Below, in pieces: positions 5,190-57,388 of a stretch of 64,000 nt of DNA. Position 1 is the first letter of the stretch. Every line of letters begins with the position of its first letter. The DNA is from Escherichia coli. GTDB lineage: Bacteria > Pseudomonadota > Gammaproteobacteria > Enterobacterales > Enterobacteriaceae. The position numbers and the translations under genes are program-made. The notes below the pieces were generated by a model. It searched no databases. It was not told the origin of the DNA and worked only from the letters and a program-made list of their open reading frames with translations. The stretch is taken from NCBI RefSeq assembly GCF_024223415.1, contig NZ_CP100500.1; one strand, given 5' to 3'.

Positions 5190-6074
5190 TCAGAACAGGT
5201 GATCCCACAGTGTGACCAGCAGGTGGATAATGCGGTCCCGGGTTTTGCGCAGAAGCTGTAACATCCAGGCCGGAAAACTGAAACGGGCAACGGCGTCGTC
5301 AAAACTTTTCCCGATGGTTTCACCAAAAGTCTGTTGTGCGTGTTTCCGGGCCTGTTCAGAGCGGTTTTCCCCCCGGATATGTGAATAAACCGCACTGGTT
5401 GCCTGTGGTGGCAGTGCGTGGATCATCAGCGACACAAACGCCGGAAGGTTCCAGCCGACAGGTGCGGCAACGGAGAGTACCGGAAATGATGAAGGGAACA
5501 GGGTTGCCACCCGGGCTGTCACCGTCGCCAGTGAGAGCGCCTGCTGACGGGACGGGCATTTTTCTGTGTCGTTCCATTCTTCAGCAGGAAACACGCGATC
5601 GGCATGGCTGAGAACAAACAGAAAACGCGAGGGATCTGCACCTTCATTCAGTAAAAACTGATGCATGGCAATATCAGCAGCATACGCACGTTCATCAGCC
5701 CGCAGGATCCAGATAATCAGATCCAGTTCGGGCAGTAACTGACTGTAAAGTGCCCGGTATTCCTGATCATGCTGTGGTGTTTCGCCAGTGCCGGGCAGAT
5801 CGACCAGCGTCATTCTTCGTTCACCGGGCTGAAAGGTAAGACGATGAGCCTGACGGGTGCAGCCGTTCAGCGGATGCGTGGCGCAGACACGGGACTGAAA
5901 AATGGCATTGCACAGGCTGCTTTTTCCGGCACCGGATTTACCCATAATGCCAATAACGGGTTCGTACTGAATGACGCTGCGAAGATGTTCAAGGATTTTC
6001 TGGCGAATTTCTTCAGGAAGAAAGGTCAGATGTGACTTTACGTGTGCGGAGAGGGAAGAATGGCTGAATGACAT
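5190..6074 (-). CDS. Island GTPase (YeeP/YkfA/YfjP family)
   Basis: P-loop GIMGKSGAGKSS and DLPGTGE motifs; 294 aa. Confidence 0.85.
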   Translation of the reverse strand: MSFSHSSLSAHVKSHLTFLPEEIRQKILEHLRSVIQYEPVIGIMGKSGAGKSSLCNAIFQSRVCATHPLNGCTRQAHRLTFQPGERRMTLVDLPGTGETPQHDQEYRALYSQLLPELDLIIWILRADERAYAADIAMHQFLLNEGADPSRFLFVLSHADRVFPAEEWNDTEKCPSRQQALSLATVTARVATLFPSSFPVLSVAAPVGWNLPAFVSLMIHALPPQATSAVYSHIRGENRSEQARKHAQQTFGETIGKSFDDAVARFSFPAWMLQLLRKTRDRIIHLLVTLWDHLF

Positions 6075-6174: not shown

Positions 6175-7323
6175 ATGGCTAAAAACAAAGGTATCTGTCG
6201 GAATAAAAAATGCAGCAATCCTGTTTCAGAATTTGATGAGGCAAATGCCCTGAGGTTATGTGATGATCATTATCAGTTATGGAAACGAAATAAAGAGAAC
6301 CGTCGGGTCAGGAATATTTGTCGTATAATCAGTAAATATGACAAAAGTCTGGACCGGGAGATATTTGACAGAGTAATAGATGCTGCAAGAAATCAAACGG
6401 GAAAGAGAATTGTTGAGGACGCAAAAATATTACATCAATTGCGCAATTCAAAGCAAGTAAGAAAAAGTCTTCATAATGGAGTACTCCGGTCACGGGAATG
6501 GCTCAATACACAGGAGTTACTGAGAAGAAAAAATATATCTGTTACAGGTGACTCATTTAAATCTTACATAAAGGATATTGTCAGATTATATTGCTATAAG
6601 TTTCTCTACAGCAGAGAATATCTTAATGAAAACGCATACAAAAAACAATATCAGAGAGTTATTAACCCCAGAGAATTTAATGTTCCGATACTTCAACTTG
6701 AAGTTGCATGGATCAATAATAATTGCCGTTCAAGTGATTCAAGCTCTGATATTATCATCCTTCCCAGGATGATAAGAAGAATGGTTGTATTTAATGATAC
6801 GAAGATAAATAAACAATTAGAGGAAATGTTGGGGGGGATAGCACGAAAAAAAGTCGCAGTAAGGAATAAAGGCGGTCTCTATACCAGAATAAAAAAAGAA
6901 AATGATTTTCGTTCTATGGATAGATTTATGGTGGAAATCGAAAATATCATAAGACCTGAAATATTTCCGACATCAATTTACCCGCCTTTTTCACTTTCAT
7001 TTATCGAGAGAGAATTGCCACTACTGAATCTGGCGCACTCACAGTACAAAAGAGCAATAAGTAAAAAAGTGGCGAATTCAATTTTTTATACTTTGCGAAA
7101 AACTCACGTGGCATTATGGCTGCATCTTGAAATGTTTGCTCTTGTGGCATTCATCAAACTGTATACAGGAAAAGGGTTTGAATTCATGAAAAACATGTGT
7201 GTATTTATAGATTATGATAAAGGGATAATAAAATCCACGCATGAAGAACTGCTGAGTGAAATTAAGTGTAACATTCAGTTGAATTTAAAGGTGAATCCTG
7301 ATAATTTTCCTGAATTAATATAA
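6175..7323 (+). CDS. Orphan hypothetical protein, 382 aa, AT-rich
   Basis: Long uninterrupted ORF in markedly AT-rich DNA; N-terminal Cys/His cluster (C8, C13, C29, H32), Lys/Arg-rich body, hydrophobic segment near the C-terminus; no family recognised by eye. Confidence 0.6.
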   Translation: MAKNKGICRNKKCSNPVSEFDEANALRLCDDHYQLWKRNKENRRVRNICRIISKYDKSLDREIFDRVIDAARNQTGKRIVEDAKILHQLRNSKQVRKSLHNGVLRSREWLNTQELLRRKNISVTGDSFKSYIKDIVRLYCYKFLYSREYLNENAYKKQYQRVINPREFNVPILQLEVAWINNNCRSSDSSSDIIILPRMIRRMVVFNDTKINKQLEEMLGGIARKKVAVRNKGGLYTRIKKENDFRSMDRFMVEIENIIRPEIFPTSIYPPFSLSFIERELPLLNLAHSQYKRAISKKVANSIFYTLRKTHVALWLHLEMFALVAFIKLYTGKGFEFMKNMCVFIDYDKGIIKSTHEELLSEIKCNIQLNLKVNPDNFPELI

Positions 7324-8640: not shown

Positions 8641-8981
8641 TGATTGAGTTGTGTGATTAAGCTGTAGGTTTTGGCGTTGTTGTTGATTTGCATTGCCAGG
8701 AAGCGTTCTGGTTGCGTTTCTGGTGTTTTGTTCGAATGTTCTGTGGATCCTTTTCCCTTCAGGCTTTTCTCGTCGTCCATGTCGTTTTTAAATCCATTCA
8801 TGCTGTTGTTGCGTGTTTTGCTGCTGTGTGCAGGATTATCTTTTCGTTCCGGGATGGTTTGTTCCGTTTCAATCACTCTTAATCAGAGAGTTGTAGCATT
8901 GCTTAATGACATGATGCCGTAAAGTTTTACCGCGGTGATTAATGATGTGAAGTCAATCCAAATCAACGGAGATCTCTCATC

Positions 8982-9713
8982 ATGAATCAACCAATACACA
9001 ATGCTTACTGGTTATCCCGTTTTGACAGCCTTCTCGACAGTGCCCTGTCGCAGCACCGTGCCGTCTCGTTAATCCGGGTGGATTTACGTTTCCCTGAGTA
9101 TATGCCTGTCACCATCATGGATCCCGATCCGGATTCAGCGGTGATTTCTCGTTTTTTCGAATCCCTGAAAGCCAAAATCCAGGCTTACCAGCGGAAAAAA
9201 CGACGTGCCAACAAGCGTGTGCGTGCAACCACTCTGCGTTATTTCTGGTGTCGGGAGTTTGGCAAGGAAAAAGGCAGGAAACATTATCACGTGATATTGC
9301 TGCTCAACAAAGATACCTGGTGCTCGCCAGGGGATTTCAGCGAACCATCTTCGCTGGCGACGATGATCCTGGAGGCATGGTGCAGCGCCCTGCATCTTGA
9401 GGCCTGGCAAGGCGATGGCCTGGTCCATTTTTCCAGGTGGACGCCTTCCCGTAAACCAGCATCGTCTGATGCTCGCCCTTCTTCCGATGACACGCCTTTG
9501 TCGGGTGGATGTTCTGATACCAGGAAGGCTTCAGAAAAAAAGCCGGGTGAAGCCGCTGTTCTCTGGATCAAGCGTGGTGATGTGGAAGCGCTGCAGAAAG
9601 CCCGGAACAGAGCCAGTTATCTCGTGAAATATGAGACGAAGCAGCATGACGGTTCCGGGCAACGTAATTATGGTTGCAGTCGTGGGCCGGGGCGTCTGCT
9701 GGATGGCAGGTGA
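8982..9713 (+). CDS. Inovirus Gp2-family protein (YagK/YfjJ-like), copy 1
   Basis: 243 aa; HYHVILLLN motif typical of Gp2-family island proteins; preceded by a conserved leader motif. Confidence 0.8.
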   Translation: MNQPIHNAYWLSRFDSLLDSALSQHRAVSLIRVDLRFPEYMPVTIMDPDPDSAVISRFFESLKAKIQAYQRKKRRANKRVRATTLRYFWCREFGKEKGRKHYHVILLLNKDTWCSPGDFSEPSSLATMILEAWCSALHLEAWQGDGLVHFSRWTPSRKPASSDARPSSDDTPLSGGCSDTRKASEKKPGEAAVLWIKRGDVEALQKARNRASYLVKYETKQHDGSGQRNYGCSRGPGRLLDGR

Positions 9714-37565: not shown

Positions 37566-37811
37566 TAATACTATTCCTGCCCTGTAATTTACGGGCAGGG
37601 TATATCAACCGGAAATAGCCTACTGACATCCATGTATAAAGCCACATAATTATTTTGTTGATGTATCTTACCTAATACGTAAGCGTAAAGCCAATGCCGT
37701 CTGTAACTCCTGATCCTTGCAGACTAAATGTAAGCGCCCTATCAGCGACGTCTTGTGAAAATTGTCCTGTCTGGCAACAATTGCGCCCATCTATATTGAT
37801 GGACACGAACG

Positions 37812-47764: not shown

Positions 47765-47775
47765 TGGATTTGCCC

Positions 47776-48681
47776 CTATATTTCCAGACACCTGTTATCA
47801 CTTAACCCATTACTGGCTTGCTGCCGTAGATATTCCCGTGGCGAGCGATAACCCAGTGCACTATGCGGATGCCATTCGTTATAATGCTCGAACGCCTCTG
47901 CAAGGTTCTTTGCTGCCGTTAACCCGTCTGGTTTAGGCATGATACTGATGTAGTCACGCTTTATCGTTTTCACGAAGCTCTCTGCTATGCCGTTACTCTC
48001 CGGACTCCGCACCGCCGTGCTCTTCGGTTCAAGCCCCAACATCCGGGCAAACTGCCGTGTTTCATTAGCCCGGTAGCATGAACCATTATCCGTCAGCCAC
48101 TCTACTGGAGACGCCGGAAGCTCGTTGCCGAAGCGGCGTTCCACCGCTCCTGGCATGACGTCCTGTACTGTTTCACTGTTGAAGCCGCCCGTAGTGACCG
48201 CCCAGTGCAGTGCCTCACGGTCACAGCAGTCCAGCGCGAACGTGACTCGCAGTTTTTCTCCGTTATCACAGCGGAACTCGAACCCGTCAGAGCACCATCG
48301 CTGATTACTTTCTTTCACAGCCACTCTGCCTGTATGTGCCCGTTTCGATGGCGGTACAGCAGGTTTTCGCTCAAGCAACAGCGCATTCTGGCGCATGATC
48401 CGGTAAACACGTTTGGCATTGATCGCAGGCATACCATCAAGTTCTGCCTGTCTGCGAAGCAGCGCCCATACCCGACGATAACCATACGTGGGCAGCTCTC
48501 CGATAACATGGTGTATACGGAGAAGCACATCCGTATCATCTGAGTGACGGCTGCGGCGACCATCTTTCCAGTCATCGGTTCGTCTGAGAATGACGTGCAA
48601 CTGCGCACGCGACACCCGGAGACAACGGCTGACTAAGCTTACTCCCCATCCCCGGGCAATAAGGGCGCGTGCGCTATCCAC
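47776..48681 (-). CDS. insD: IS2 transposase InsD
   Basis: 301 aa with DDE motifs. Confidence 0.9.
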
Positions 48682-49004
48682 TTTTTTGCCCGTCCATATT
48701 CAACGGCTTCTTTGAGGAGTTCATTTTCCATCGTTTTCTTGCCGAGCAGGCGCTGGAGTTCTTTAATCTGCTTCATGGCGGCAGCAAGTTCAGAGGCAGG
48801 AACAACCTGTTCTCCGGCGGCGACAGCAGTAAGACTTCCTTCCTGGTATTGCTTACGCCAGAGAAATAACTGGCTGGCTGCTACACCATGTTGCCGGGCA
48901 ACGAGGGAGACCGTCATCCCCGGTTCAAAGCTCTGCTGAACAATTGCGATCTTTTCCTGTGTGGTAAGCCGTCTGCGTTTCTCCGGTCCTAAGACATCAA
49001 TCAT
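48639..49004 (-). CDS. insC: IS2 InsC
   Basis: 121 aa from [12 protein letters not shown]... Confidence 0.85.
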
Positions 49005-49095
49005 CTGCTCTCCAATGACTAGTCTAAAAACTAGTATTAAGACTATCACTTATTTAAGTGATATTGGTTGTCTGGAGATTCAGGGGGCCAGTCTA

Positions 49096-49190
49096 TTCGG
49101 CAGCACTGTTGCCCTGTATCGAACAGGCCAGAGAGGATGTCCGTACCCTGCGTCATCTGCAGCTTCTGCACCAGAACCGGTGAATATCAC
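49096..49190 (+). pseudogene. 3' fragment of a yeeW-like gene cut by IS2
   Basis: Encodes ...[28 protein letters not shown], matching the C-terminus of YeeW at 685-1038. Confidence 0.5.
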
Positions 49191-49211
49191 TCACCACGCT
49201 TCATTACCCTG

Positions 49212-49243
49212 ACGCCAGCCTGAATACGGCTGGCGTTTTCGTT
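49212..49243 (+). terminator. Rho-independent terminator-like hairpin
   Basis: CGCCAGCC tgaatac GGCTGGCG followed by TTTTCGTTT. Confidence 0.5.
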
Positions 49244-49260
49244 TATAAACCAAAAGGAAA

Positions 49261-49420
49261 AATGATGATGTCAGATACCACACTCTCCCGCCCGGAGGTG
49301 GTCAGCGGGCATACGGACGTTATCTATTCCACCTCAGTCTGCCACATTCTGGCTGTACGAAAGAGTACACTGTTGCCAATCGACACAATTATCCGGCATC
49401 AAGTGAGCGATATCAGTTAA
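49261..49420 (+). pseudogene. Truncated second copy of the DUF4942-like gene
   Basis: MMMSDTTLSRPEVVSGHTDVIYSTSVCHILAVRKSTLLPIDTIIR then diverges and stops; paralogous to the minus-strand gene at 1-600. Confidence 0.5.
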
Positions 49421-49820
49421 CCGATATAGATGGGGAAGATGCTTTTATCCGGATTGGATCTATCGCGATGGTGCGAGTACCACTTGATGCAATGGAGCCT
49501 GTCGAGGCAGATGACGAGTAACAGAGCTCGGTATCTCAATCAGGACCTGATTGTCCTGGTTCGATGCCGAAAACCAGTGATTTTTCGTGTTGGTATCTGT
49601 GTTGGTATAGGATGGTGTTGTTTATTATTAACAATTTTAAATCATGAGGTTAAATCGCATGTTTGAGTCAGGCCTTCGCATCAATATCAAAACAATCAAT
49701 AAATAAGTCCTTTAACCTAGCCACGACCAATCATTGATCAACCACGAAATCCTCTCCGAAACACAGTCCCAATCCCTAAACCCTACGCTCAACATCGAAA
49801 CCCGCTTATCACCATCCCCC

Positions 49821-50690
49821 TCATCCCCTGAACACCTCCCGCCGGTGCCACGCCACAAACCCCTCCTGGGGATAGCATTCTTTCCCCATCGGCAAGGTAA
49901 TCGGCTTACCATCAAAATCCCAGAACAACCTGCCAACGATGCCTCCGCCGTTCACCGCCGGCGAAACCTGGATGCGCATATCCTCATCCAGACCAATGGA
50001 TCCTTTATCAAAATCCTTATGGTGAATCGCGCAGAGCGCCAGGCCGTTAGGGATTTCGCAGGGGCCGCCGTGCTGCTTCCACTTGATATGGGCCGCTTCC
50101 AGGGCGACGGAGGTATTATCATGGCGCATATTGAAGCCGCAGATAGCGCACTCATAGTTATAGGCGCGCAGCACCTGCTGGCGAAAATGCGGGTCGCGCT
50201 CTTTGCGGATCTGCAGCAGATCAAACCCCATCTCTTCAGCCAGTTCTTCCTGAATACTCTCCGGAAAGTGCGCCTCAAGGATCTGATGGGCGAGGGTATT
50301 GATCAGCTTCTTATTTCTGTTAAGTAACGCAAAATGCTGCTCATCAAAGCCGCCGGCGACGTGGCAGAGCTCCAGCTCTTTGCCGGGCGGCTGTCGGCTG
50401 CCCTGGGTTGAGCACTGTTCGCTGTTGTGTAGCTCCCAGAAGCCGTCGCCTTTCAGGCGCCAGAAGGGCATGTCCGGCCGGTACTGGCGGCGCTGCGGGC
50501 CAAAGCGTTCCAGCAGGCTATGCAGCTCATCACGTATCTCCGAGGCGTAGTCGAACATCCGCGCATGGCCGCGCTGGTATTGCGAGAGGACGTACAGCAG
50601 CAATAGTGGTTTATGCGGCGCACGCTGTTCGCCTTTGCGCCAGATGGTGATGTTCTCGATCGCGTGTTGCAGGGTCGTGCTGGAGGGCAT
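49821..50690 (-). CDS. HNH endonuclease with N-terminal recognition-like domain (putative type IV restriction enzyme)
   Basis: C-terminal HNH motif ECAICGF...AAHIKW...NGLALCAIHHKDFD; GC-rich; start at MPSSTTLQ. Confidence 0.75.
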   Translation of the reverse strand: MPSSTTLQHAIENITIWRKGEQRAPHKPLLLLYVLSQYQRGHARMFDYASEIRDELHSLLERFGPQRRQYRPDMPFWRLKGDGFWELHNSEQCSTQGSRQPPGKELELCHVAGGFDEQHFALLNRNKKLINTLAHQILEAHFPESIQEELAEEMGFDLLQIRKERDPHFRQQVLRAYNYECAICGFNMRHDNTSVALEAAHIKWKQHGGPCEIPNGLALCAIHHKDFDKGSIGLDEDMRIQVSPAVNGGGIVGRLFWDFDGKPITLPMGKECYPQEGFVAWHRREVFRG

Positions 50691-50869
50691 AGCGTTACAT
50701 TGGCAGCTAAATAAATGCGATGATGCTCGCAAAATCCTTGCCGATCAACCTACCAGATGCGGCGATTCTACGTGGATCGCGATTTAATTATCACTGCCAG
50801 TTATTTGTTCGAAAAGACCATAGCTTTCTATTTATACTCAAGCTTCGCGCCATCAGATAGCTATGTCTT

Positions 50870-51508
50870 ATGAAAAAACTACCGGACCATTTATCCAGGG
50901 AATGCATCATCGCCGCCATTCGCGCTTACGATGCAGGCGTTGCGCATCAGTTTAAAAGCGCGCGTCTGTATGAGATCGAGTTTGAGGGGCGTCGGTATCC
51001 TTCAAAAGCCATCGTCGGGTTAGCGGCCACGCTTGCGACGGGAACGGAATTTACCCCGGCGGATTTCAGCGGGGGGATTAAATCAAAATGCGTGCGTCTG
51101 TTACTGGAGCAAGGATTTACGATCGCGTCGCAGGGCGCTGGCGATGACGAGGTTGCGCTTTTCCCCGATGAGGGGCAGACGACCATGGAGTACGTGGAAG
51201 GGGCGGCGTTGCAGGTGGTGGTCAATCGCTATGAGCGCGACCGTCAGGCTCGTCAGGCGGCGCTTCGCCTGCATGGCTGCCAGTGTCAGGTATGCGGTCT
51301 GGATATGGCCAGCCGCTATGGCGATATCGGCCAGGGCTTTATCCATATCCACCATCTCATCCCGCTGGCCGGGATAAAGCAGGACTACCGCCTGAACCCT
51401 GAAACCGATCTGATCCCGGTATGTCCCAACTGCCATGCGATGCTGCACCGGCGAGATCCGCCGTTTACCCCCGAAGAGCTGAAGGCCCGGCTGCGCCCCA
51501 CAGACTGA
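50870..51508 (+). CDS. McrA-like HNH endonuclease
   Basis: C-terminal CQVCG...HIHHLIPLAG...DLIPVCPNCHAMLH resembles the E. coli McrA HNH region; divergent from the preceding gene. Confidence 0.75.
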   Translation: MKKLPDHLSRECIIAAIRAYDAGVAHQFKSARLYEIEFEGRRYPSKAIVGLAATLATGTEFTPADFSGGIKSKCVRLLLEQGFTIASQGAGDDEVALFPDEGQTTMEYVEGAALQVVVNRYERDRQARQAALRLHGCQCQVCGLDMASRYGDIGQGFIHIHHLIPLAGIKQDYRLNPETDLIPVCPNCHAMLHRRDPPFTPEELKARLRPTD

Positions 51509-51590
51509 CATCCGACAGCGCTCGCTTTAATTACATCAAACACACCACAAACCCCACGCTACCTTACCGGTAGCGTGGGCCCACTCTCTT

Positions 51591-53270
51591 TTACTTATCC
51601 CGCGTCTCGCCAGCCTCCCAGCTGTAGCTGCCATCGGCCGCTAAGCTATCGCCCAGCTCCTGATACTCGAACTGATAAAACTCAGCCTGGGTGCCGTACC
51701 CGGCGTAGTCTACCGCCGCCAGGCCGACGAACGCCCCGGTAAAGAACCCGCCGTAGCTCTGCAACACATAGTCATCGGACAGCACCGCGGCATCCAGCTG
51801 GACCGGGATCTCGGTGAACGTCACGCCATCGAAGCTGTATTCATAGCTGTAGGTCTGCTTGCGGACTTTGGTCCGGAACCAGACGTATTCCACGCCGTCC
51901 GGCACCTTGATGGCGTTATCTTTCAGGTACGACGTGTATTTCCCGCGGTTATTTTCGCCGACTTCGATGACCTTGCCGTTAATTTCATTCCAGGTCAGGA
52001 AGACGAAGCTCCAGTGGCGGTCGTTATAGTAATTCGTTAACCCGGCCATCTGCTGGTAGCTGAAGGGCTCGAATTTCACCTTCACCGCGGCGTCAAAATA
52101 GAAGGCCTGCCAGCGGCGGGCAATCAGCGACAGATCATGCGTATTGGCTAACGAGCCCTGGCCGATTAAGGTTAATTTGCCGTTACCGGTGGTGCCCATT
52201 TTGGCCGTAAACGGCACCCGCAGGGTATTCCAGTTCGGGTCGAGGGCTGGCGACGTAAAGTCATCCTGCTGGCTATTATCGCTGGCGCTTTCGGTGAAGA
52301 TGGCGTCTTTCGGTCCTTCGACGAAGGTTTTCCCGCCGTGACCGCCTTCAATACGCGGCCAGCCCTCGTCATCCCAGTACACTTTCTGGATCGCGGTTTC
52401 CCGGCCGAGGGTTGACCAGCCGCGCGGGTCGTAGATGGATTCCCCCGGGCGATTCCACGGCCGGGCGCAGAGCGAGGCGTAATACCATTCGCCTTCCGGG
52501 GTGGAGACCAGCGCGCCATGGCCCTGTTTCTGGATGTAGCTGTCCGGGGTGTCGACGTTGGTTAAGAACACGTCGCCCGGCTCGGTTTCAAAGCTGTCGG
52601 CCTCGAGGGTTTTCGACCGCGCCACCACCTCCTGGTGGGTAAACACGGTGCCGCCCTGGGCGGCAAACAGGTAGTAGTAGCCGTTCAGTTTATAGAGGTG
52701 CGGCCCCTCGACCAGCGCTACGGCGGTGCCGCGGTAGATGGTGCGCGCGGTTTCCGGCATTAACTTCAGCGTGTTGGTATCCAGCTCCGTTAAGGTAATG
52801 CCATCGAAGGGGTGATGGTACTCCCGGTGATCCCAGGTTTGCTGGACGATATATTTCCGGCCATCGTCGTCATGGAACAGCGAGGCGTCAAACCCGACTC
52901 CGTTCAGCTTGATCGGGTCGCTCCACGGGCCCCGAATATCCTTCGCGGTGGTCAGGTAGTTGGTCATGTCTTTGAAGGCGCCTTCGGTGACCTTCACATC
53001 GGTATACACCAACCAGAATTGCCCGTCGGCCCAGGAGAGCGCCGGCGCCCAAATGCCGCCGGAGGAGGGGTTGCCCTTCATGTCCAGCAGGGTGGTGGTG
53101 GAGAGCGGCGAAGGCAGCAGGTTCCAGTTTTTCAGGTCTTTCGACTCATGTAAACGCACGCCCGGAAACCACTCAAACGTCGAGTTGGCAATATAGTACG
53201 TATCCTCGACGCGAATAATACTGGGGTCGGCATTAAAGCCGCGTAATATCGGGTTTTGAATAAGTGACAT
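51591..53270 (-). CDS. xynB: Glycoside hydrolase family 43 beta-xylosidase (XynB/YagH-like)
   Basis: 559 aa; N-terminal GH43 five-bladed propeller motifs (NPILRGFNADPSI, WLVYTD). Confidence 0.85.
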   Translation of the reverse strand: MSLIQNPILRGFNADPSIIRVEDTYYIANSTFEWFPGVRLHESKDLKNWNLLPSPLSTTTLLDMKGNPSSGGIWAPALSWADGQFWLVYTDVKVTEGAFKDMTNYLTTAKDIRGPWSDPIKLNGVGFDASLFHDDDGRKYIVQQTWDHREYHHPFDGITLTELDTNTLKLMPETARTIYRGTAVALVEGPHLYKLNGYYYLFAAQGGTVFTHQEVVARSKTLEADSFETEPGDVFLTNVDTPDSYIQKQGHGALVSTPEGEWYYASLCARPWNRPGESIYDPRGWSTLGRETAIQKVYWDDEGWPRIEGGHGGKTFVEGPKDAIFTESASDNSQQDDFTSPALDPNWNTLRVPFTAKMGTTGNGKLTLIGQGSLANTHDLSLIARRWQAFYFDAAVKVKFEPFSYQQMAGLTNYYNDRHWSFVFLTWNEINGKVIEVGENNRGKYTSYLKDNAIKVPDGVEYVWFRTKVRKQTYSYEYSFDGVTFTEIPVQLDAAVLSDDYVLQSYGGFFTGAFVGLAAVDYAGYGTQAEFYQFEYQELGDSLAADGSYSWEAGETRDK

Positions 53271-53328
53271 TTCATTACACCTTTTAAAATGGAAAGTGAC
53301 GAATCGGTCTGATTTATAATTTTTTTAA

Positions 53329-54783
53329 CTACACGCGGATCTCATCCAGCTGACGGTTGATGTCGGTAACATGTTTATCGGAGATCGGATAAACCTGGAT
53401 AATCACCATCGAAATAGCGGCCAGCGCGATCGGGATCCACACCGCGGTCATAATGATCCCGTCGATGGCGCTGGCGCTCTGCACGGCGCCGCTTTCATTA
53501 AAGCCATACACCGCCAGCAGCCACAGCGGGATCGCGCCGCCGATGGTGAAGCCGATCTTGAAGAAGAGTCCCATAATGGCATTGATAATGGCGGCATTGC
53601 GTTTGCCAGATTTTAATTCGCCGTACGCGATGACTTCCGGTACCAGCGCCCACATAAAGCCGGTGGCGGAGGTTAAGCCCCACTGTTTAATAAAGGTGGC
53701 GATGTAGGCCAGCCACAGGGCGTCGTGCATCCCTTCGCGGGACCAGACGTAGGTCAGCAGTTCGCCGACGATAAACATGGCGAGGAACAGATGGAAGAAG
53801 CCTTTTTTACCAAAGATTTTTTTCAGTTTCGGCCAGAAAATCGGGAAGGCGATGCCGGGAATAGACGCGACGAGACCCACCGCGCCCATCCATTCGGAGT
53901 GGCCGACGACGTACTGGTTGAAGAAGCCGTTAACAGTGTTCATGAAGAACATGAAGGTAAAGGCCAGCATAAAGAACATGCCCAGAATAACCAGCGGGCG
54001 GTTATGTCGGAGCTCGTGGAAAAGGTCGGTGGTTTTGACGTTGGCGGTCTGCTCGGCGGTCGCGACAACGCGTTCTTTGGTGAATTTATAACAGATAAAC
54101 AGAGCCACCGCGCCGATGATCATATAGATGGCGTACACGCCAAACCAGGCGTAATTTGCCGACGGATCGGCATAATTCCCCAGATTCAGCTCAAGGCCAA
54201 AAAAGCCGGTGTCTTTCAGGCTGCGATCTTTCGGCGCCGCCATCTGCACAAACATCGGGAACAGGGTATAGACCAGCAGGTTGGCGCTGTTGGCCAGCAT
54301 CATGCGGGTACTGGTCAGTTTATCGATCGATTCCGGGTCGCGGGTCAGCGACGCATTCAGCGAGCCATAGGGAATATTGACTAAGGAATAAACCAGGTCC
54401 AGCGCCAGATAAATAATAAAGGCGAAAGCCACCGAACCTTTCACTCCGGGGATGGGCGCGAACAGTAATGCCGAGAGGATCACCAGCGGCACGCCGGCTC
54501 GTAACAGCCACGGACGATATTTCCCTGCCTTCGAGGTTCGTTTATCCACGTAGGTGCCGACCATCGGATCCCAAAACACGTTAATTATGCGGACAAAAAG
54601 AAAAATAAAGCCTGCCGTTGCCGTGCTGATGGTATTTACCGTCAGCATATGCAAAGCCAGAAAACCCCCAATTGTGCCGAAAACCAGGTTTTGCGCAAAG
54701 TCGCCCATGCCATAACCAATTCGTTCTCCACGGGTTAATTTATGATATTCATCATGCCGACTGTGCATTATGTTTTTACTCAT
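53329..54783 (-). CDS. xynT: Glycoside-pentoside-hexuronide:cation symporter (xyloside transporter XynT/YagG-like)
   Basis: 12-TM GPH-family transporter upstream of xynB; start at MSKNIM after a GGAG ribosome-binding site. Confidence 0.85.
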   Translation of the reverse strand: MSKNIMHSRHDEYHKLTRGERIGYGMGDFAQNLVFGTIGGFLALHMLTVNTISTATAGFIFLFVRIINVFWDPMVGTYVDKRTSKAGKYRPWLLRAGVPLVILSALLFAPIPGVKGSVAFAFIIYLALDLVYSLVNIPYGSLNASLTRDPESIDKLTSTRMMLANSANLLVYTLFPMFVQMAAPKDRSLKDTGFFGLELNLGNYADPSANYAWFGVYAIYMIIGAVALFICYKFTKERVVATAEQTANVKTTDLFHELRHNRPLVILGMFFMLAFTFMFFMNTVNGFFNQYVVGHSEWMGAVGLVASIPGIAFPIFWPKLKKIFGKKGFFHLFLAMFIVGELLTYVWSREGMHDALWLAYIATFIKQWGLTSATGFMWALVPEVIAYGELKSGKRNAAIINAIMGLFFKIGFTIGGAIPLWLLAVYGFNESGAVQSASAIDGIIMTAVWIPIALAAISMVIIQVYPISDKHVTDINRQLDEIRV

Positions 54784-55194
54784 TCTAAGCAGACTCCGGT
54801 TTGTTTTGTGTAGGTGAAACACTTTCTGACACAGTTGACATGGAAGAATCTATTACGTTTTTAAATTAAGTAATTATGTTTTTTTACTTCTGTGATCCTC
54901 GAAGCAAAGGCCTGTATCACCTGCGTTGAGCCGCCATCCGCCGCTAATTTTTTGGCAGACAGGCAATGTGACAAAACCGGCATTTTAATTCGCTATGCCC
55001 ACCTGAATTCCCCAGGAAGTGTACTCTATACGCGCGCGAAGCGAGATATTTAAAATAGTTTTATTTGCGAGATGGCTCACATTTGAGCATTTTCTCAATC
55101 GCTGAGTGAAATAACGTAATTGAGCAACCGACGATGAGAATACACGATGTGTCACAGTTGTTAATTTTCGGCTTCCTCAATTTCGGAGTTCATC

Positions 55195-56514
<1,320 letters not shown>

Positions 56515-56524
56515 ATTTGGCTGA

Positions 56525-56544
56525 CATGCCCCTGCGGGGGCATG
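56525..56544 (+). terminator. Hairpin after xylA (CATGCCCC tgcg GGGGCATG)
   Basis: 8-bp perfect stem 11 bp after the stop; weak T tail. Confidence 0.4.
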
Positions 56545-56844
56545 TATTCCGCCGTGTGCCCGCTGCCGGGAAATAGCGTTTATTTGTTCGTGTTGTATTT
56601 ATGCTGTCTGTGCCGAAAGGCTATCTGTTTGACTGTCTATAGAGGAACAATCCGCCGCGCGGATGGTTCTGCCATTGTGCCACCTTTTTAATATCAGTGA
56701 GGGAGGGCGAGTAGCGATAATTGTGTAATGCCTCTGTGACCGTACAAAATAAAAAATAATTTGTTCTGATGATAGCGACATATTCTGTCAGCTCAGAATA
56801 GGCTGGTTATTGTCTGAATAAAATTAACCTATATTGAGAAACTC

Positions 56845-57156
56845 ATGACAATGATAAAAAAACTTCCATTAACCATGGCGGTTATCGCCGCGTTTTTTCC
56901 GCTTACCTCTGTAATGGCGCAAGAATTTACTCAGGAACAGATCGACGCCATCGTCGCCAAAGCCGTTGATAAAGCGCTGGCCGAGCAAATTGACGCCTTG
57001 AAAGCCGCCGCCCGTGAATGCGGTCCGTTACCCGATGAGCCGTTTATTCAGATGGCGTTTCTTTCTCTGCCAGTGATCCCCGCGCTGAAACTAACCAGTC
57101 AGGGGCTATTTGATGGCGAGAAGTTTGCCTTCACCACGCTGGAAGTCACGGAATGA
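56845..57156 (+). CDS. Small ORF with porin-like signal peptide and N-terminus (possible truncated porin paralogue)
   Basis: First ~50 aa ([47 protein letters not shown]) parallel the N-terminus of the porin at 62214, then diverge. Confidence 0.4.
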
Positions 57157-57388
57157 AAAAAAGACCGTATTAGCTGATTTACGGAAAATATGTACTCCAC
57201 AAGCGTCAATATCAGACGAGGCCTGGGAAAAGATAATGTTGTCTGATGAAAGTAATCAGCAGCACATCCGTGAGGCTATTGTGGCGATGGAACGCAATAA
57301 CCAGAACAATTACTGGGAAGCGTTAGGCAAGGTTGAATGCCCGGATATGTAGACGTGAAGCTGCAGCTTCACGTCATACATTTAGCAC

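Follow-up and report, generated by a model that had tools for sequence, protein, structure and literature searches.

The leuX gene is a documented integration hotspot (PMC7545054). Islands residing there, including PAI II536, those of UTI89, CFT073 and S88, and KpLE2 of strain K-12, carry a repeat of the tRNA 3' end at the distal border and a terminal module of cbtA/cbeA, DUF957 and DUF4942 genes, and their composition shifts at the border. The same traits are found in the window, as the whole analysed stretch of 64,000 nucleotides of Escherichia coli DNA (contig NZ_CP100500.1) is called here. Unlike in those islands, the att copy of the window is decayed and buried in a larger island (a selC island in strain ES1), and a flank of a foreign genus lies beyond it. 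Determinants of LPS and capsule that are related to Klebsiella are listed for E. coli HS (PMC7545054), which likewise has a K. pneumoniae-like segment on its chromosome; in contrast to that case, the import in the window starts exactly at an att core, inside a tRNA island.

Comparison with other genomes revealed a joint at which the end of an E. coli-type island gives way to Klebsiella-type DNA. It is very probable that this joint is a fossil attR, where a leuX island meets a Klebsiella-type leuX flank that is now cargo in E. coli. The features on both sides of the joint are the following (strand and basis in brackets).

47765-49095 (-): complete IS2, 1331 bp, with ORFs at 48639-49049 and 47776-48681 (NCBIfam)
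49096-49660 (+): distal-end remnant of an E. coli-type cbtA/cbeA (CP4-like) island, comprising a 3' fragment of DUF957, the first 50 codons of DUF4942 (49268-49417) and a fragment of an HTH regulator (49393-49521) (E. coli alignments)
49661-49683 (+): degenerate direct repeat of the 3' end of leuX tRNA-Leu(CAA), attR-type (comparison with the tRNA and other genomes)
49680-49683 (no strand): homology switch point (island-end and K. pneumoniae alignments)
49684-49820 (no strand): Klebsiella-type spacer, 137 bp, from the att remnant to the stop codon of the endonuclease gene (K. pneumoniae record L031, 12001 onward)
49821-50690 (-): predicted phosphorothioated-DNA-binding type IV restriction endonuclease (SBD-HNH, ScoMcrA-like), 289 aa, GC3 0.72 (NF045808)
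50870-51508 (+): divergent HNH endonuclease with a ScoMcrA_N domain, 212 aa, GC3 0.66 (Pfam ScoMcrA_N, HNH weak)
51591-53270 (-): GH43 glycoside hydrolase of the beta-xylosidase/arabinofuranosidase type, GC3 0.78 (Pfam Glyco_hydro_43, GH43_C2)
53329-54768 (-): glycoside-pentoside-hexuronide (GPH):cation symporter (MFS_2), GC3 0.69 (TIGR00792, 297.8 bits, cutoff 231)
55195-56514 (+): second-copy xylose isomerase gene (xylA), GC3 0.71, product 83% identical in amino acids to K-12 XylA (sequence comparison)
56845-56984 (+): start of a Klebsiella-type carbohydrate porin gene, first ~140 bp (K. pneumoniae homology)

Sequence alignments place the homology switch at 49680-49683, where 4 bp (atca) are common to both sides. 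On the E. coli side, the homology to the island end reaches 49683 in strain FORC_031 and 49680 in the own copy of strain H8; the homology to the K. pneumoniae chromosome starts at 49680. An abrupt boundary had been predicted between 49420 and 49720; it is real and is now placed to 4 bp. The original prediction also held that the junction coincides with the truncation point of the DUF4942-like gene. The gene is indeed cut short, with only its first 50 codons present (38 of the 50 residues, or 76%, are identical to the full-length copy), but the two points do not coincide: at the DNA level the match to the full-length gene stops near 49398, some 285 bp to the left of the joint. The truncated DUF4942 gene, the HTH fragment and the att repeat make up one module, which is 95% conserved and occurs with unrelated right flanks in thousands of E. 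coli genomes. The island-end module of the window is 95% identical to positions 8688-9275 of FORC_031 (L002), where a cluster of SNF2, methyltransferase and helicase genes lies to the right of it, and 90% identical to positions 6641-6062 of H8 (L001), from which the pseudogene annotations of the fragments were taken. With a 2-kb query that included IS2, partial matches came from more than 5000 E. coli genomes, and among the matches listed, all those lacking the right block stop at query positions 781-784, which correspond to 49680-49683 of the window. The truncation of DUF4942 is a separate, widespread feature, older than the joint.

On its left side the module is cut by IS2 at 49095/49096. 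The element is complete, as judged by NCBIfam scores of 705.6 bits for TnpB (cutoff 597) and 272 bits for TnpA (cutoff 229). No 5-bp target duplication was found around it (flanks ...ctcagac|IS2|ttcgg...), as would fit a later rearrangement. H8 and ES1 share this IS2 together with its right flank. A 35-kb block (12774-47764) is flush with the left end of IS2 and is missing from H8; it resembles, as we presume, the AGI-3 island described for strain BEN2908. The 25 kb tested (12701-37700) are 99.1-99.3% identical to island DNA of E. coli GF60, BEN2908 and others. The predicted E. coli-like nature of the left side thus holds insofar as it matches E. coli islands; the side is not uniform, being a mosaic of acquired modules with a GC content of 0.35-0.56.

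A search for att-like direct repeats at the junction had been proposed, and a leuX 3'-end-like copy was found at 49661-49683. This copy, gtttgagtcaggccttcgcatca, compared with the leuX 3' end, GTTCGAGTCCGGCCTTCGGCACCA, shows three substitutions and one deletion relative to the last 24 nt of the gene. FORC_031 possesses a cleaner, near-perfect copy, TTTGAGTCCGGCCTTCGCACCA, at the identical position. The own island end of H8 has the same sequence as the FORC_031 copy, followed by short duplications of the TTCGCAC type, and in K. pneumoniae the sequence TTCGAGTCCGGCCTTC lies directly to the left of the equivalent flank. Within the window, a search for GAGTCCGGCCTTCG with up to two mismatches yielded one match, the repeat itself, with 0.4 matches expected by chance. 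The leuX 3' end, taken at 16-30 nt with up to two mismatches, had no match in the window, nor did the ungapped leuX 23-mer with up to three mismatches; the repeat is missed by ungapped searches because of the indel, and it was spotted by eye and then backed by comparison. Taken alone, the candidate att copy of the window is not above chance; it gains weight through where it lies and through the comparisons.

No tRNA gene was found in the 64-kb window; an intact leuX island would have one, with a tyrosine integrase, at its proximal end. In H8 and ES1 the integrase and the tRNA gene (Leu and Sec, respectively) are located beyond the Klebsiella-like block. As this block separates both of them from the joint, the joint appears to be a relic and does not delimit an intact element. 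The att remnant has probably lost its activity, judging by its mutated core, the IS2 590 bp away and the lack of a tRNA gene in the window.

The composition changes at the joint in a way that depends on the measure used. The GC content of 500-bp intervals rises from 0.44 (49250-49749) to 0.56-0.58 (49750-50499). Plain GC is, however, a poor marker here: IS2, to the left of the joint, reaches 0.53-0.57, and there are equally large steps at 47.7 kb and 50.3 kb. A change-point scan on plain GC did not single out the joint, because the steps at IS2 and 50.3 kb are equally large, whereas the per-gene GC3 does single it out. The five genes of the right side (49821-56514) range in GC3 from 0.66 to 0.78 (mean 0.71), compared with a mean of 0.52 (sd 0.09) for 36 genes of the left side (Mann-Whitney p=2.8e-4). 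For reference, GC3 is 0.52 in the E. coli core genes flanking the homologous island of H8 and 0.55 in K-12 xylA. In K. pneumoniae the genes neighbouring the block have a GC3 of 0.83; since the block, at 0.71, is below its neighbours, it may be accessory in Klebsiella as well. The predicted GC3-rich block to the right is borne out as regards the shift, and it is not continuous: it spans 49684-56984 and is followed by a gap (56985-62203), after which the porin gene resumes. Homology to H8 and to both K. pneumoniae records (L030 and L031) ends at 56984 and resumes at 62204. The cluster interrupting the porin gene is an E. coli accessory beta-glucoside PTS/porin cluster; this E. coli-type DNA begins at 56975, and the GC3 is 0.47-0.56 in 56985-62203 and 0.72 in the porin gene after it. 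The second xylose isomerase had been estimated to be about 80% identical to E. coli XylA, which comes close to the measured 83%.

The first gene beyond the joint is predicted to encode a phosphorothioate-dependent endonuclease of the SBD-HNH family: its product scores 438.3 bits with NCBIfam model NF045808, above the curated cutoff of 180, and contains the Pfam domains DNA-SBD_ScoMcrA (PF26340) and HNH_2 (PF13391). PDB sequence matches (5zmo and 7cc9) were obtained to the sulfur-binding domains of ScoMcrA and SprMcrA. Phosphorothioate-dependent enzymes of the ScoMcrA, SprMcrA and EcoWI type have been described (PMC6224610, PMC7470945, PMC9521924), and the endonuclease of the window shares with them the PT-DNA_restrict model and the SBD and HNH_2 domains. 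Unlike ScoMcrA, the solved chain of which has 561 residues, it comprises 289 aa and is paired with a ScoMcrA_N HNH protein. The paper on EcoWI contains nothing on the relation of EcoWI to this endonuclease. At the nucleotide level the endonuclease gene is 94.3% identical to its K. pneumoniae counterpart, and the HNH gene is 96.5% identical to that of K. pneumoniae L030 and 67% identical to E. coli's own HNH gene by nanS.

The 156-bp intergenic piece between these two genes was considered as a structured RNA or a repeat and was rejected as such: its fold z-score is -0.64 and it has no Rfam match. It is part of another Klebsiella-like fragment, common to 29 other E. coli genomes, SMS-3-5 included, where it adjoins ISKpn26. 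SMS-3-5 and the 28 others carry a second trace of the same Klebsiella flank.

The remaining genes of the block make up a putative xyloside-utilisation cluster, of which the GH43 gene is 97% identical to K. pneumoniae at the nucleotide level. The xynTB genes of Klebsiella oxytoca are a xylodextrin-utilisation operon, and yagGH of E. coli K-12 is comparable. As in these operons, a GPH symporter gene lies beside a GH43 gene in the window, a likeness at the level of domains only; unlike them, the cluster of the window also includes a second xylA and a porin gene.

The block 49684-56984 as a whole demonstrates 94-97% nucleotide identity to two K. pneumoniae chromosomal records, a 5.37-Mb chromosome record and a 550-kb linear piece, both coming from a plasmid collection. 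Raoultella planticola is more distant, with 78-82% to the block and 81% over the stretch 51571-56543; the endonuclease gene is 72-77% identical to those of Citrobacter and Enterobacter, and E. coli's own homologues are at 67-72%. The Klebsiella-like character that had been predicted for the right side is upheld by this comparison (94-97% to K. pneumoniae versus 67-72% to the endonuclease and HNH homologues of E. coli). Among the species-representative matches of the endonuclease no Klebsiella was found, the best being Raoultella with 85-86% amino acid identity, and no donor above 97% identity was found in the Klebsiella sampled, namely the two chromosome records and the species representatives. 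In K. pneumoniae the block is followed by another 12 kb or so of chromosomal genes (YbgA, DUF3833, CFA synthase, MerR, lipocalin) up to cusA, and a cbtA/yeeU island abuts its endonuclease side.

Among 5426 complete E. coli genomes, 11 have the exact joint, their identity being 99.9-100%. The leuX island of H8 is a close relative, sharing 47765-56984 of the window at 99.85%. The joint lies at leuX in H8 and in the selC island in ES1, with island DNA on both sides; in A65EC it adjoins setC in the gene order of ES1, selC being outside the stretch examined. The Klebsiella-like stretch is about 10 kb long in H8 and A65EC and ends abruptly at different points, and neither an att-like nor an IS sequence was found at these right ends. 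A contig of GCA_900482235.1 matches 48269-60690 of the window at 100%. Carriers of this rare island include ST38, poultry and other E. coli isolates. The high identity to the donor, the patchy and shallow spread and the presence at two tRNA loci point to an inter-genus segment that would have passed from Klebsiella to E. coli. Uniform best hits to a single species on both sides had been named in the original prediction as an observation that would speak against it. Both sides do match E. coli genomes at about 100%, the right side in the 11 genomes mentioned, so that the argument is borne by rarity and the comparison of orthologues and not by the species of the best hits.

A scan of species-representative genomes with the endonuclease yielded 23 loci in Raoultella, Citrobacter, Enterobacter, Silvania, Leclercia, Escherichia sp. 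and Xenorhabdus. In nine of them (Citrobacter spp., Enterobacter, Silvania and Raoultella) a leuX-derived 13-mer, GAGTCCGGCCTTC, occurs 8-81 bp past the stop codon of the endonuclease gene; by simple arithmetic, the chance expectation for a 200-bp neighbourhood is about 6e-6 per locus. The 13-mer lies 152 bp past the stop codon in K. pneumoniae and 4-4.5 kb off in Escherichia sp. E1V33 and Leclercia. The tRNA-Leu(CAA) and endonuclease genes are convergent and 5.6 kb apart in Silvania confinis and 9 kb apart in Citrobacter sp. Cu233, the interval being bounded in both by the tRNA 3' end and the repeat; in Silvania it carries an islet with a Ser/Thr kinase and a phosphatase. From these arrangements we infer that the endonuclease/HNH pair is a native chromosomal neighbour of leuX in Enterobacteriaceae. 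None of the 23 loci showed an empty site, in which leuX would directly abut the endonuclease gene, and the ancestral arrangement is thus a deduction. E. coli has its own pair, an HNH gene and a truncated endonuclease gene by nanS, where the leuX island region ends on its far side; it is 67-70% identical to the pair of the window at the nucleotide level, and most of it is present in at least 860 complete genomes. In H8, a third endonuclease fragment directly follows an integrase fragment, and it fits poorly with a simple picture in which the gene belongs to the flank only.

Three other explanations of the joint were weighed against a fossil attR. The joint might be a live border between an island and the core chromosome of the host, the host being then either a Klebsiella or a lineage of E. 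coli that has this flank. Core genes that would name the host are absent from the window, and the K. pneumoniae chromosome shows the same order of cbtA/yeeU island, endonuclease, HNH and GH43 genes. A live border is nevertheless very improbable, given that the left 25 kb tested match E. coli island DNA at 99.1-99.3% and that the Klebsiella-like block is already broken within the window, at 56984, by the E. coli-type cluster. Moreover, in H8, A65EC and ES1, the three nearest E. coli genomes for which the far end was inspected, the Klebsiella-like DNA ends after about 10 kb and is followed by an Ag43 fragment, IS66, an integrase and then tRNA-Sec or tRNA-Leu. The predicted island/chromosome boundary is consequently an island boundary, and it does not mark where island and chromosome meet in the present host, island DNA lying on both sides in H8 and ES1. 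It may also be supposed that the two parts were fused illegitimately or by an IS, the likeness to the leuX 3' end being a coincidence. An IS2 without target duplication 590 bp away has taken part in rearrangements, the att match within the window alone is not significant, and the other end of the block is itself an abrupt, illegitimate-looking joint. Against this, the breakpoint lies exactly at the end of the tRNA-like repeat, which occupies the same spot in FORC_031, the own copy of H8 and K. pneumoniae and adjoins the endonuclease gene in at least nine other genomes; besides, the module up to 49683 is kept with many different right flanks. A fusion of this kind is very unlikely.

The remaining explanation dispenses with inter-genus transfer and regards the block as an old accessory region of E. 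coli, its GC3 resulting from gene function or expression. All best matches (99.9-100%) are indeed E. coli genomes, and the block GC3 of 0.71 is intermediate, falling short of the Klebsiella-core-like 0.83. On the other hand, hundreds of E. coli genomes have their own diverged pair by nanS (67-70%), while the block is 94-97% identical to K. pneumoniae, and the neighbouring synteny runs about 12 kb further in Klebsiella only. The block is found in 0.2% of complete E. coli genomes at two tRNA loci, its 11 copies being 99.9-100% identical to one another, and this combination of rarity, two loci and near-identical copies indicates a recent spread. An old E. coli origin is accordingly given very little credence. 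All in all, the interpretation offered by the original prediction, an island/chromosome boundary or an inter-genus recombination joint, is partly supported.

The reading that we prefer, a fossil attR between a leuX island and a Klebsiella-type leuX flank, can be outlined as follows. What lies left of the joint is the final ~590 bp of an E. coli-type cbtA/cbeA island, closed by a 23-bp copy of the tRNA 3' end that has decayed. Right of the joint come the K. pneumoniae-type endonuclease gene, convergent with leuX, and the HNH gene, and then the genes for xyloside utilisation (GH43, symporter, xylA and porin). Islands entering leuX would push the old tRNA 3' end against the endonuclease gene. Since both parts meet exactly at the att core, it seems that the E. 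coli-type island and the Klebsiella-type leuX flank were joined by integrase-mediated recombination at this core, and not by homologous or random joining. The joint could have formed in a host of the Klebsiella complex bearing an E. coli-type island, or else in E. coli, where Klebsiella DNA had come in and undergone att-by-att recombination. Either way, about 10 kb of Klebsiella-type flank would have been brought into E. coli by island DNA, and the flank would now be inert cargo there inside composite leuX or selC islands. Later reshaping would include the cutting of the module by IS2 at 49095/49096 and the recombination of an E. coli cluster into the porin gene at 56984.

A bolder version of this history, which we consider rather unlikely, is that the island picked up about 10 kb of Klebsiella chromosome past attR, by aberrant excision or att-by-att recombination, in an analogue of specialised transduction, and that the endonuclease/HNH pair is a conserved 'gatekeeper' of leuX. 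Islands encoding dnd, the phosphorothioation system, integrate at leuX (PMC2663466). In several enterobacterial genera the endonuclease/HNH pair appears to be a constant companion of the leuX hotspot, which none of the papers searched was found to state, and the location of dnd islands at leuX beside a phosphorothioate-dependent restriction pair is possibly new within that literature. The gatekeeper role, if true, could explain the frequent truncation or replacement of the pair, as in E. coli.

The understanding of tRNA islands is unchanged by this case, the mechanism being a known one and part of ordinary island biology. The coordinates of the joint and the assignment of its sides help to annotate a rare E. 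coli island and its xyloside-utilisation cargo, and the relic att site would record an earlier residence of the island DNA beside the chromosome of another genus.

Besides the junction at 49680-49683, where the end of the E. coli-type island meets the Klebsiella-like block, the following features were delineated in the window.

1-845, left edge: further copy of the island-end module (DUF957, DUF4942), in inverted orientation
12774-47764: 35-kb block without a counterpart in E. coli H8, flush with the left end of IS2
50710-50865: 156-bp intergenic spacer that separates the divergent endonuclease and HNH genes
56975-63541: E. coli accessory cluster that splits the Klebsiella-like block within the porin gene

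The window carries two island termini in opposite orientations, because an inverted copy of the island-end module is present at the left edge in addition to the copy at the junction. Positions 470-773 share 85% identity with 49095-49398. The DUF4942 gene of the junction copy is cut at codon 43, whereas that of the left-edge copy is not cut there, since its homology to the full-length ES1 gene runs up to the window edge. The leuX island of the closely related H8 has its own end at 6000-6062 of the fetched locus (L001, reverse strand), where tandem 7-bp units derived from the att end (TCGCACCTTCGCACCTTCGCACC) come after the att repeat.

The ORF at 6175-7323 (382 aa) has a GC content of 0.34 and a GC3 of 0.32 in an island backbone that otherwise shows a GC content of 0.50-0.60; H8 has an annotated hypothetical protein at the equivalent position.

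The cargo of the 35-kb block, with ugpB, PTS, TonB-receptor and esterase-like (phytase-family) genes among others, is 99.1-99.3% identical to that of GF60 and other E. coli, mainly from poultry, BEN2908 among them. The block also contains IS66 and IS3-family elements, a DsbD-like gene and a low-GC TRAP transporter (GC3 0.37-0.47). In GF60, the sequence corresponding to window position 37630 is joined straight to that of 49097-49099, and there is no IS2 at that joint.

The cluster interrupting the porin gene comprises an adeD 3′ fragment, yicS, and genes of a LacI regulator, PTS IIB/IIC, a GH1 6-phospho-beta-glucosidase and a porin. A chromosomal cluster with 96% identity to it occurs whole in only 25 E. 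coli genomes. On either side of the interruption lies a copy of the porin gene's 150-bp 5′ end, at 56835-56984 and 62204-62353.

The 156-bp spacer was matched at 96.8% in 29 further E. coli genomes, where it lies without annotation. In SMS-3-5, genes of a glycosyltransferase and a pyruvyl-transferase and an IS256 fragment are located on one side of the spacer and ISKpn26 on the other. Because the spacer neighbours of K. pneumoniae strain 176 are arranged in the same way, the SMS-3-5 copy is a second, independent trace of the Klebsiella flank within E. coli. A structured RNA in the spacer was ruled out by fold and Rfam checks.

In several genera, to judge from the window (49821-51508) and the endonuclease loci fetched from other genomes (L004-L025), the leuX integration hotspot appears to have the phosphorothioate-dependent endonuclease and its HNH partner as conserved neighbours. 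In E. coli, the endonuclease gene is mostly found in truncated form. H8 possesses a third, separately diverged endonuclease fragment (L001 30045-31101; 65-72% nucleotide identity to all others), which is fused to a truncated DUF3833 gene, and a C-terminal fragment of a leuX-type integrase is found about 200 bp beyond the fusion. This order does not fit the rule that the endonuclease gene lies outside the island. According to PMC2663466, leuX is the integration site of the dnd (phosphorothioation) islands of Salmonella, E. coli B7A and Enterobacter 638. Conflict or gatekeeping may link these islands to the endonuclease/HNH pair.
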